Below, piece by piece: positions 3,758-7,379 of a DNA stretch of 64,000 nt. The position numbers were made by a program, and so were the translations under genes. The notes beneath the pieces were generated by a model. That model saw only the letters and a program-made list of their open reading frames with translations, was not told the origin of the DNA and ran no database searches. How positions within the stretch are numbered: the first letter of the stretch is position 1; each line of letters opens with the position of its first letter. This stretch comes from Somniosus microcephalus (lineage: Eukaryota): the NCBI GenBank assembly GCA_052327205.1, contig CM126215.1:126046001-126110000 (forward strand), written 5' to 3'.

Positions 3758-4013
3758 TGTTAAGTATGTGTATTGTATTGAACAATTAACACAAAGACTT
3801 AAACGTATAACTCAAACAGGCCTTTACTGGTTGGAGGTAGGGACTGCACATAGGTCTTTACTTCATGCCCACAGGCGGGAACTGAGGGGGATCAGTACCC
3901 ACAGTACTATTTATACCCCTATGGCCAGGAGTGGTACTGCGTATCACTACGCCCAACAAGTAGTGCAGTCCTGTCCATAGGTTCAAAGTAGCACACATAT
4001 TACATACACAACA
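3758..4013 (-). repeat. 3' LTR of inner element
   Basis: TG...CA, direct repeat of 7124-7379, flanked internally by the PPT. Confidence 0.95.
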
Positions 4014-4026
4014 TTCCTCCCTTCCT
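4014..4026 (-). promoter_or_regulatory. Polypurine tract (AGGAAGGGAGGAA)
   Basis: All-purine 13-mer abutting the 3' LTR on the - strand. Confidence 0.85.
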
Positions 4027-4330
4027 AGCTTTACAGTCATCTCCCCATTTAACATAACGTAATAACATATATACATATATAACTTCAGGTTTACATAACA
4101 GAATAACATAGATACATAGATAACTTCATGTCAAAAACAGATCACAGATTCAGTCTCTGCGGAAAACAGTTCACAGATTCAATCTCTGTGGTGTAGTCGG
4201 TTCACGTTGCTAGAGTGACTCATTCAATAGTCCTTCCATGGATTTAACAGTTTGAACTTCCGAACTGAATTGGCTCCGTTCGGAGGGACCACGTGTGTGA
4301 TCTGGTAGAGGTGATAATGGTTCAGATGGG

Positions 4331-6556
4331 TCATCTTCTGTTTTTACTTTTCCTTTTCTGCTTCTTGGAGACTCTCTGGGCTCCATTGTCAGCTGCCACA
4401 GCTGCCAGCTGCATGCGCAGTTCCTCCTTCTCTTCCTCCTGTTTCCGTCGTAGAGCCAGCTTCTCCCGATGTTCCGTAGACTTTTGGTGCTCCTCCATGA
4501 TTTCTGCACTTTGGGAGTCGAAGTTACAAGCTGGGCAGGACAGGACATCGTAATATTCGGTGTCGTCCTGAGCTAGACCAGTGAGAGGGTCGTCTATTTC
4601 CTCCATACCTAGCTGGACGTTAGCCAGCTCTTGTTCCAAATCCAGACATCTTTCCTGAAGAGACTTCTTCATGTGTACCTCTGCATCCAGCTTTTTCTGG
4701 GCTTTCAGCAAGTCGTTTACTAGTGACCTCATTTGTGATTTTAATACTTCAACTTCCTTTGGAGATTGATTGATCGGACTATGCAATCCCTCTACCGGAG
4801 CAGCTGTTTCAGCGGTCTGTTGTTCTACGTTGACGTGAGTCAGCGTACTTTTGGCATCCAAGGGCTGCTCTGTTGCAGTCATCTCAGTCTGTGTTGCCAC
4901 CTCAGCTCTTCCAATAACCTTTGAGAGCTCCGAACCCCTTTCGTTTGAATATTGAAGTTCATGTTCAAGTTTTTCCCATTTCAGAGTCCTGTCCTTCAGC
5001 ATATGCAGGAGTTGGCTGACCGTTAACTCCTCTGACATCAGACGTTTTGTGTGCTCCTGCTCCATTTTCTCCATCAGCTGCTTCTGTTGTCTTTCCAGAT
5101 TCTCCAACTCTATATCAAAGAACTCTTTCGTTGCATTCAACTCTTGCTCAAAACGGCGAAGCATTTGTTCTAATTGCTGTTGTAGTTTGAAATGGAGTTG
5201 AGTTCGAGCCCGGTGTCCCTCAGAAATGGGCACATCAGTAGACTTGCCAGACTCAGAATCCACAGTTAAACTATGTTGTTGTTGCTCAGTGGAATTCTGT
5301 GCTGAAACTTTGTCTTTTGCACCTGAGTTGGGCTTACCATCATCCGTTCCAGAGTCTGGGCCGACTATCTTCACCGAGTTCTCACTCGTTATTGTTTGTA
5401 GGAAATGCCAGTCCATATTCATTTTCCTAATCCACTCCCGTCCTAGTAGTGGAGGACCTCCTTCAGATATCACATATAAGTCCATTATTTGACTGTCTTC
5501 GCCCTTGTGGGCCACTGCAACCTCTATTTTCCCGATGGGGTACACTCTTTGCCCCGTGTATGTTTTCAATATAATCCCCGTATCCTGTAGGGGAATATGT
5601 TGGAATAACTTTCCGTAATCTTTCTTATTTATGACCGTCAATGCCGATCCAGTGTCCAATTCCAGTTTTACTTGGACTCCTTCTATCTGAAGAGTGACCC
5701 AAATTGTCTGGAGGTCTGCACCCTTACCAGCGTTGAGTACTCTTAAGCTAGCCAGTTCATTACAGCTTAAGCTAGCCAGTTCATTACTGCTAGCGTCTGA
5801 ATCGGACTCCTGTTCGGTCACCTTGTGTACCTTTGCGTATTTTCCTTGCGGTGACTTCTTGTTGCTGGTCTTCTTCCCTGACCTGCATACTCTAGCTATA
5901 TGTCCAAGCCTACCACAAGTTCTACATTCTTGGTTTTTAAACCAACACTGGTTCTGATCATGCGTTGTCTTTCCACAACGATAACATTTGCCAGAACTCA
6001 CACCCAATTTGTGTGCACTGAGCTCCGGTGACCGTAGCTGCATTACTGCCGTGCCTCTCGCTGCGGCTTCGTGTGCTGCTGCCATAGTGACCGCCTTCTC
6101 AAGCGTCAGCTCATTCTCCTCGAGCAGTCGCTTTTGTGTATCCTGTTTAAATAAACCACACACAAATTTGTCTCGTAGTGCATCTGTCAATCCCGTTCCA
6201 AACTGGCAATATTTCGCTAATTTACGCAATTCCAGCAAATATTCAGCATTGCTTTCATGCTGTAGCTGCCTTCTGTCGTAAAATTTAAATCGTTCCGCTA
6301 GCATCAGCGGCGTGGGGTTTAGATGATCTTTCAGGACAGTAACAATCTCATCGAACGTCTTATCCGCCGGTTCATCTGGTGATAACAGGTGTTTCAATTG
6401 CCCGTACGTCTTCGCACCCATTAAATTTAATAATGTTAGAGCTTTATCTTGGTCACGAATTTTATTGGCCTTACAATAATTTTTTACTCTTTCAACATAT
6501 ATGGCCCAATCTTCGAGGTCACTATCAAAGGTGCTAATATTCCCGTGTTTAGGCAT
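4331..6556 (-). CDS. gag-pro: 741-aa chimeric polyprotein: Gag (2 CCHC knuckles) + aspartic protease + host-derived coiled-coil/zinc-finger segments
   Basis: Uninterrupted ORF with ATG in ACAATG context; [14 protein letters not shown] and [14 protein letters not shown] knuckles (aa 191-224); LDTGSA and LLGREW protease motifs (aa 300-375); non-retroelement C-terminal half. Confidence 0.9.
4334..4567 (-). other. DNAJC21: Captured DNAJC21-like C2H2 (JAZ/matrin-type) zinc finger + basic tail (aa ~664-741)
   Basis: [10 protein letters not shown]12[13 protein letters not shown]...SKKQKRK resembles recalled DNAJC21 YDDLYCPAC-x12-HEKSKKHREMVAL...SKKQKKK. Confidence 0.7.
4622..5035 (-). other. OPTN: Captured optineurin-like coiled-coil segment (aa ~508-645)
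   Basis: EELTVSQLL...ATQTE...[37 protein letters not shown] is colinear with recalled [13 protein letters not shown]...ETQTE...[37 protein letters not shown]. Confidence 0.8.
5039..5221 (-). other. STK10: Captured STK10/SLK-like coiled-coil segment (aa ~446-506 of chimeric ORF)
   Basis: [42 protein letters not shown] closely resembles recalled STK10 (LOK) [45 protein letters not shown] is the alternative paralog. Recognised from memory, not searched. Confidence 0.8.
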
Positions 6557-7112
6557 TGTAGATTTGCAATTTCTCAGATTTTATTTTCTTTACTTGTTAT
6601 CAAAGATGGCGGCTTCCCGCTCTTGCCGTCGTCCTCCGCCCACAAAATGGCGGTTTTCCCGCGCTTGGCGGTCTTCACCCGTCCCCCGACGCCGTCTCCC
6701 TTCAGCCCTCGAGTGCGGCCCTTATCTTCGCCGCGATCGATAGCCCGCGCTGTGCACCGCGACTCTCGCACCTTGAGCTTCTGCAGCCGCCGCGCCTTTC
6801 AGTCCGAGTGCGGCTCTTATCTTTGGTCCCGATCGCTGGCCCGGCTGCGCCCCTCACTTCAAAGCGGCCCGGCCCTCATCTGCCGATCGCTATCGCCCTA
6901 CCTCTCTCTCTTCCCCAGTCCTGTCTTTACTCCGGTTCACAAGCTGATGGAGGCTTCAGGGTCCTAATGCCTGTCTCTTCCAGTCGCTGGAAGCTGTCAG
7001 GATTTCTGCTGCCCTTCAGTTTTGAGTGGGGTGTTGAGGATTGAAACCTCTCTTCAACGTCCTGTCTTTGGACGAAGCCGCCTGGAATAACTGCCGCAGG
7101 GTAAGAGCCTGA

Positions 7113-7122
7113 CTCGTCGCCA
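7113..7122 (-). promoter_or_regulatory. Primer-binding site TGGCGACGAG (tRNA-Ser(GCU)-like)
   Basis: One base inside the 5' LTR; complementary to ...CUCGUCGCCA, the 3' end of vertebrate tRNA-Ser(GCU). Confidence 0.8.
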
Positions 7123-7123
7123 G

Positions 7124-7379
7124 TGTTAAGTATGTGTATTGTATTGAACAATTAACACAAAGACTTAAACGTATAACTCAAACAGGCCTTTACTGGTTGG
7201 AGGTAGGGACTGCACATAGGTCTTTACTTCATGCCCACAGGCGGGAACTGAGGGGGATCAGTACCCACAGTACTATTTATACCCCTATGGCCAGGAGTGG
7301 TACTGCGTATCACTACGCCCAACAAGTAGTGCAGTCCTGTCCATAGGTTCAAAGTAGCACACATATTACATACACAACA
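7124..7379 (-). repeat. 5' LTR of inner element
   Basis: Identical by eye to 3758-4013; followed by the PBS on the - strand. Confidence 0.95.

Follow-up and report, generated by a model that had tools for sequence, protein, structure and literature searches.

We analysed a 64,000-nucleotide (nt) stretch of the Somniosus microcephalus genome (contig CM126215.1, positions 126,046,001 to 126,110,000; hereafter the window), which carries on its minus strand, at 3758–7379, a 3,622-nt non-autonomous long terminal repeat (LTR) element of the Gypsy type that we designate form B. Its two 256-nt LTRs (5′ LTR, 7124–7379; 3′ LTR, 3758–4013) were 100% identical with TG...CA ends, and the 5-bp target site duplication (TSD) GTTTC flanked the element on either side (3753–3757 and 7380–7384). 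The primer binding site (PBS), TGGCGACGAG (7113–7122), starts one base inward of the 5′ LTR, and a polypurine tract (PPT; 4014–4028) precedes the 3′ LTR. A stop-free open reading frame (ORF; 6556..4331, protein P0001) of 741 amino acids (aa) encodes Gag with two CCHC zinc knuckles (5711–6556), an aspartic protease (PR) with a DTG motif (5393–5710), and then cargo derived from the host genes STK10, OPTN and DNAJC21. The knuckles and protease gave weak Pfam matches (E values of 0.003–0.04), and the same search of the ORF returned no match to reverse transcriptase (RT), RNase H (RH) or integrase (IN) domains. The original prediction, made from the sequence alone, had described the identical LTRs, TSD, PBS, PPT, uninterrupted Gag-PR ORF and missing RT/RH/IN, all of which were reproduced here.

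These features, together with the pol order PR-RT-RH-IN of its parent family, place the element in Ty3/Gypsy, and it is non-autonomous in that it lacks RT, RH and IN of its own and exists as dispersed copies, each with its own target site. It is a putative member of the Mag clade. A single gag-pol frame and two CCHC knuckles are marks of Mag elements and both were present, the former in the autonomous family described below. The PBS was common to that family and to all forms of the lineage, and its primer is presumably tRNA-Ser. Neither the window element nor the autonomous family, which is about 5.2 kb long, contained an env-sized ORF.

The cargo begins with two pieces of STK10 exon 7 (5216–5386; aa 391–447, corresponding to STK10 400–424 and about 449–479), followed by spliced STK10 exons 9/10 with the start of the PKK coiled coil (5042–5221; aa 446–505, STK10 616–675) and by four spliced OPTN exons with a 21-nt internal deletion (4598–5047; aa 504–653, OPTN 228–384). 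A six-codon remnant of STK10 exon 6/OPTN microhomology (4589–4606; aa 651–656) leads into a DNAJC21-derived C2H2 finger, helix and basic tail (4349–4588; aa 657–736). Exon numbers 6–10 of STK10 denote order within the fetched host region and not a curated annotation. A non-coding remnant of STK10 exons 6–7 and of the integrase C-terminal tail lies 3′ of the stop at 4130–4339. The mosaic had been described as consecutive STK10/SLK, OPTN and DNAJC21 segments; STK10 is in fact present as three pieces plus the six-residue remnant between OPTN and DNAJC21, and the remnant past the stop had been missed.

Segment-specific protein matches identified the three donors. All 40 matches in a protein search with residues 390–741 were to OPTN or STK10, the best from sharks (optineurin, E = 6.5e-50, 71% identity; STK10, E = 1e-17, 77–81%), and the PKK domain gave a profile match (E = 2.5e-8). 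Residues 652–741 gave nine matches, all to DNAJC21 and all weak (best E = 2.4e-3). The corresponding piece of a less diverged sister form, 50% identical to the window piece over 58 aa, matched 413 proteins, the best being shark DNAJC21 (E = 9.5e-18). SLK, proposed earlier as an alternative kinase donor, was rejected: it was absent from the 40 matches, and the DNA fitted the STK10 locus at 86–94%. A PDB sequence search with the cargo returned nothing below E = 1, and the best 150 of 22,087 representative-protein matches cover only Gag-PR, with no match to any of the three host proteins and hence no annotated chimera among them. A single-sequence fold of the window protein had a mean predicted local distance difference test score (pLDDT) of 44.5.

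We located host STK10 (C8, 167.17–167.23 Mb) and host OPTN (C17, 85.87–85.91 Mb) in assembly G000, to which all genome counts below refer, using gene parts absent from the window and then fetching the loci; protein searches with host sequences in this assembly were dominated by related elements. The window cargo was 86–94% identical to the STK10 exons and 80–91% identical to four OPTN exons, which follow one another without introns. The discontinuous parts of a single LTR element thus enclose spliced host sequence, with microsimilarity at the switch points and a cargo end without poly(A); the DNAJC21 joints lie outside this check, with the host exon missing. Neither the 270 kb next to the first exons of host DNAJC21, a region with three assembly gaps, nor a search with the preceding exons yielded the finger exon of that gene, and a finger-like match near the first exons proved to be another copy of the element (form C, below). 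Where capture or deletion joints were open to checking, they had 4–10 nt of microhomology, and most joints in the window copy are later deletions and not original capture joints. Since the introns are missing relative to the host genes, the joints bear microhomology and intermediates survive, there is support for the earlier proposal that spliced RNAs were captured one after another through template switching. Two further features of the host loci were observed. Relative to the element copies and to the protein of another shark, assembled host OPTN (G000:C17:85884780-85885370) has two single-A insertions in homopolymers, which are probably assembly errors, and the intron between STK10 exons 8 and 9 (G000:C8:167193683-167193265) appears to be of the GC-AG type.

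The element is highly repeated. Its STK10-OPTN joint occurred exactly 3,943 times and its PPT-LTR joint 3,272 times, with 0 occurrences of the control in each case. All 40 scored genome matches were 100% identical across the 1,068-nt cargo, and 30 fetched copies were 98.7–99.97% identical over about 3.1 kb. The first 30 PPT-LTR loci by position order all contained cargo: 14 were window-like (≥99.5% identity; B1), 15 belonged to a 95–97% subfamily and one was more distant. The frame was open over the sampled 1.5 kb in 14/14 B1 copies and 8/15 copies of the subfamily, and LTR pairs in six full window-like copies were 99.6–100% alike. The 40 identical matches, the 3,943 joints and reads from other runs across all 30 bins of the element rule out misassembly of the chimera, and the copy count that had been suggested as a check thus stands in the thousands. 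That this is a real mobile element carrying spliced host cargo is practically certain.

Related copies formed a nested series. Form A0 (12 fetched) consists of Gag-PR, STK10 385–704, STK10 290–388 and an integrase tail, and A0.5 differs from it by a 417-nt in-frame deletion. Form A1 (20 fetched) adds OPTN 131–413, spanning six exons. In A2 (12 + 8 fetched) both cargo pieces are trimmed and DNAJC21 is inserted within the STK10 exon-6 remnant, and form B has lost a further 75 and 318 nt relative to A2 and terminates in the DNAJC21 basic tail. The joint of A1/A2 was found in 2,071 copies by exact pattern. Identity to the host declines along the series, with values of 99%, 96–99%, 93–98% and 85–94%. 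From this nesting we infer the order A0, A0.5, A1, A2, B. Form C (G000:C1:2428250-2433877, L132-L133), with LTRs 98.4% alike, shared only about 71% identity with the window element; set beside a founder cargo 99% identical to host exons, it shows, as judged from these sequences, a lineage changing much faster than the host genes. At 4360–4400 of the window, a 7-nt direct repeat sets whether the DNAJC21 tail is read in its native frame and stops, as in B and C, or continues into the STK10/integrase tail, as in A2.

Sister branches carry other cargo. Seven of the first 30 back-splice loci (L150, L151, L152, L154, L164, L170 and L172; the joint is described below) had tandem I-set immunoglobulin (Ig) domains of the titin/obscurin class inserted in STK10 exon 6, as much as 330 aa long and in frame in open copies, and we take this cargo to be obscurin-like. 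L149, L154, L161, L162 and L174, and probably L152, had about 170 aa following the protease, with a zinc-finger-like motif and a stretch bearing a taspase site motif, for which KMT2A/B is our presumed donor. L154 bears both cargoes. Searches of the Atlas and PDB gave no identity for this 171-aa sister cargo; the taspase site motif occurs in the accessible text of two papers on MLL fusions.

The exon order of the founder points to a circular RNA. STK10 exons in A0 run 7′-8-9-10-6-7′, with the exon-10 donor joined exactly to the exon-6 acceptor, both of them true splice sites. Exons 6–10 total 1,245 nt, or 415 codons, and form a circle without a stop. All 12 A0 copies aligned to a doubled exon 6–10 string over 1,259 nt (1,245 + 14), ten of them gap-free, at 98.6–99.2% identity, and the back-splice joint occurred in 903 exact copies (control 0). 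Entry and exit coincide; in the autonomous family, the protease-RT linker has 10 nt in common with this site and the integrase tail 5/6 nt. The founder forms thus preserve an exact non-colinear joint, and the window copy retains only circle exons. The OPTN cargo of A1 lacks the first 8 nt of exon 3 and the last 4 nt of exon 8; no back-splice joint is kept, and these ends would fit a near-complete turn of a second circle.

We consider it very probable that the founder arose by capture of an STK10 circular RNA. The scrambled order could instead come from linear RNA, through exon repetition or trans-splicing, or from two captures of normal mRNA. Non-colinear joints can have other origins, as stated in the portion of PMC4897178 consulted, and it counts against our reading that the 69 and 54 back-splice reads in two RNA runs (X21 and X22, respectively) can all stem from elements and not from a host circle, because the joint also occurs in a DNA-like run and exon 7/8 and 8/9 joints are rare in RNA (0–4 reads). 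Such origins are nonetheless improbable, given that in 12/12 founders the exit lies one circle length on from the entry and within the same 14 nt, that the joint uses both true splice sites, and that exons 6–10 each occur once in the 80 kb of host locus fetched, with no tandem exon duplication.

A young autonomous family provides a plausible source of enzymes. It comprised 2,236 candidates (40/40 scored at 99–100%) of about 5.2 kb, with Gag-PR-RT-RH-IN in one frame, the same PBS, and LTR pairs 97.5–100% alike in 9/10 fetched copies. In an analysis of 15 rows the window gag-PR clustered with this family (support 100/99), whereas the cargo was nearest to A2, with the switch at the protease end. 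Nucleotide identity of the window gag-PR was 71–94% to the autonomous family and 57–81% to the parent form of the cargo. Judged by this clustering, the B branch acquired its gag-PR from the autonomous family. The search for an autonomous partner with the same LTR and PBS, suggested at the outset, was answered in part: the PBS is the same and the gag-PR related, but the B LTR is mostly distinct (about 77% over 87 nt with A1/A2, and 31 nt with the autonomous family), and none of the 30 B-LTR loci examined among 3,272 was autonomous, both of which weigh against our reading. The element probably moves in trans with enzymes supplied by an autonomous relative, and the family described here is a candidate helper.

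For the founding event, we envisage that reverse transcriptase switched from element RNA to a co-packaged STK10 circle. After one turn the enzyme would meet template already cut by RNase H and would have to exit where it had entered, and the jump back to element RNA would delete RT, RNase H and integrase. OPTN and later DNAJC21 would have been added at microhomologies, with deletions following.

Selection was estimated as dN/dS by pairwise codon likelihood. For gag-PR it was 0.14–0.26 in 10/12 pairs and 0.46 and 0.48 in the two closest pairs; gag-PR is under purifying selection, and the element therefore needs its own Gag-PR. Cargo dN/dS was 0.59–1.12 over seven host comparisons, none below 1 at p < 0.05, with 1.12 for host to form C and 0.70–1.76 for the DNAJC21 part. 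Between A2 and the window form, 103 substitutions in 1,012 nt produced 0 stops where 4.7 are expected under neutrality (P(0) = 0.008), and all larger cargo indels keep the frame, including the 75- and 318-nt deletions from A2 to B. The 331 nt behind the stop, in contrast to the open frame, have gained a stop codon and a 65-nt deletion.

We are confident that selection keeps the frame open, and it likely acts on the open frame more than on the host domains, with the exception of four zinc ligands. The original prediction had taken several in-frame captures as a sign of selection on the fusion protein; this holds for staying in frame, but for the most part not for the host domains. Several results weigh against our reading. 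Cargo dN/dS from host to window (B1) was 0.59 (about 0.4–1.0, p = 0.053), which leaves room for some weak constraint on the residues of the cargo. Microhomologies between these sequences are in frame 38–64% of the time (83% for 8-mers within STK10) and not 33%, making in-frame joints less surprising and lessening the signal without removing it. In the DNAJC21 finger, all four zinc ligands are the same across five variants, as against variation at 16/19 other positions (p = 0.004, post hoc); this weighs against a pure frame rule because an open-frame rule does not explain it.

The microhomology bias, a cargo dN/dS near 1 and the loss of about 100 C-terminal codons in B would all be expected if in-frame cargo were a by-product of that bias and of youth, with nothing past Gag-PR selected. 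We regard this as very improbable: besides the absence of stops among the 103 substitutions, there were 0 stops in 208 aligned codons of form C, the path to B required at least 11 successive in-frame joints or indels (a probability of about 0.0005–0.007 at 50–64% each, by our arithmetic), and decay 3′ of the stop was prompt. An open frame would matter if Gag-PR is needed in cis; a stop far from the 3′ end might destabilise or mis-sort the RNA, through nonsense-mediated decay or lost translation-coupled packaging.

The cargo protein itself may have a function, though we hold this to be doubtful. In the version that shares our account of the origin, the coiled coils, zinc finger and basic tail would aid Gag co-assembly with helper particles, RNA binding or nucleolar targeting, either on Gag or after release by the protease, the latter an idea of the original prediction. 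Conservation of the zinc ligands in 5/5 variants and the host-to-B1 ratio of 0.59 are in keeping with this, as are the long cargo helices, the sole confident parts of a fold model of low overall confidence, and the greater number of joints in the branch ending in the native-frame DNAJC21 basic tail (3,943 vs 2,071 and 903). That branch, however, also changed its gag-PR and LTR, which can explain its burst. Moreover, dN/dS approaches 1 towards form C and reaches 0.70–1.76 in the DNAJC21 part, no kinase, ubiquitin-binding or J domain is retained, and cargo has repeatedly been deleted or swapped, with sister branches spreading with Ig domains, the taspase-site stretch or STK10 alone. We consider such an accessory role unlikely. 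A broader and slightly less likely proposal combines it with further steps: that circular RNAs are favoured cargo under an RNase H one-turn rule (STK10 +14 nt, OPTN about −12 nt), that the lineage is a self-propagating domain-shuffling machine, and that one product, Gag-PR with coiled coil, retuned zinc finger and basic tail, is a new accessory protein driving the 4,000-copy burst. Our preferred account is probable as a whole: the window holds a young non-autonomous Gypsy copy whose pol was replaced by spliced STK10, OPTN and DNAJC21, which originated in one turn of an STK10 circle, moves on the enzymes of an autonomous family, and is under selection on Gag-PR and an unbroken frame and not on host domains.

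Read data bore out the suggested check by RNA sequencing at the level of the family. Both RNA runs are labelled with the species of the best holder of the element. X21 contained 9,764 matching records of 16.65 million at ≥97% identity, covering all 30 bins and strongly one-directional over the ORF; under the usual stranded-library convention this is sense transcription with the element. X22 contained 12,012 of 14.40 million records, also over all 30 bins, and here the reads ran in both directions, which tells against a purely sense signal. Ten indexed runs from three organisms contained at least half of the element's sequence words, and no RNA run was listed among the indexed runs holding the element. 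Horizontal transfer was considered and set aside; low-depth matches in organism D came without coverage of host STK10, as trace host DNA would give, and are not evidence for transfer.

The window element itself lies in an older broken Gypsy pol on the minus strand (1613–3255 and 7631–8464), with RT-RNase H upstream and integrase downstream and a dispersed repeat at about 3195–3725 within it. Among 3′ flanks from 52/60 B loci, 7/52 began inside a Gypsy ORF compared with 30/730 background tiles (Fisher p = 0.008; the background was not random), and B copies may favour related elements as insertion targets. Elsewhere in the window there is a 33-nt tandem array at 12456–12757. Two further regions (35044–36482 and 39142–40354), where three frames are open and GC skew is strong, are probably tandem repeats. 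Another Gypsy family is represented at L056 (4526–8500) by a full-length open ORF of 1,325 aa between 312-nt LTRs that are 99.7% alike.

Adding up three mutually exclusive joint counts gives at least 6,900 elements with intronless sequence from STK10, OPTN or DNAJC21. An annotation can mistake such elements for duplicated host genes, and they can skew expression estimates for these three genes in sharks. With thousands of dated copies for each exon-shuffling step, selection on the frame can be separated from selection on the protein.

Parts of this architecture have precedents. In the sections of PMC5131818 available to us, LTR-mediated retrocopies are incomplete spliced mRNAs embedded in an LTR element whose parts are discontinuous, with microsimilarity at the switches, in sense, often in frame, in places multi-gene chimeras, and recopied as non-autonomous elements; zebrafish and chicken cases and a four-gene mouse chimera are included. 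The window element falls under that definition, and the founder under that of retrocopies derived from circular RNA (circRNA) in the corresponding part of PMC4897178. The original prediction knew of no vertebrate Gypsy element of this architecture. As a claim about in-frame capture of several genes this does not stand, as such capture has been published, vertebrates included, according to the same sections of PMC5131818, whereas two features that the prediction had missed, an origin from circular RNA and a copy number in the thousands, add novelty. The cases described there are single loci or few copies, and the word "circular" is absent from the main text; the present lineage differs in its thousands of copies, its selected Gag-PR fused to cargo, a circle as first capture and a complete set of intermediate forms. 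Maize Bs1, as described in those sections, likewise has a hybrid ORF built from three host genes that an LTR element captured, but it is a plant element with one to five copies and one piece out of frame, and no circle is reported for it there. Our literature search, with subscription journals and repeat databases outside its reach, found no publication on this element or on capture of a circle by an LTR element. As far as this search and the protein collections scanned show, what is new is a whole circle taken up by a Gypsy element, joined to a Gag-PR under selection and serving as a platform for further captures in thousands of copies.

Other systems resemble the lineage in part. In the portion of PMC4299795 consulted, crocodilian endogenous retroviruses that captured KIT-ligand and nectin3 are likewise vertebrate LTR elements amplifying a host mRNA, but they are retroviruses with whole functional domains under purifying selection and at most nine named copies, whereas the window holds an env-less Gypsy element with domain fragments. 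It also differs from transducing retroviruses of the v-onc type, with no env-sized ORF and no clear purifying selection on the cargo domains apart from the zinc ligands. The main text of a shark genome preprint (10.1101/2024.09.09.611499), as far as it was available, describes intronless single-exon OPTN copies within 1 kb of LINE/LTR sequence; these are called a duplicated gene or retrogene, and STK10, DNAJC21 and a Gag fusion do not appear in that text. The founder can be compared with circRNA-derived pseudogenes, such as the 33 mouse circRFWD2 copies, which, in the part of PMC4897178 consulted, share a back-splice joint fixed in DNA, many copies and LTR-enriched flanks. Those copies are pseudogenes, and their mechanism is called unknown there. 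In the shark lineage the circle is open in frame with Gag, and one can see the carrier, the two switch points and the length of a single turn, which offers a route for writing circular RNAs back into the genome.

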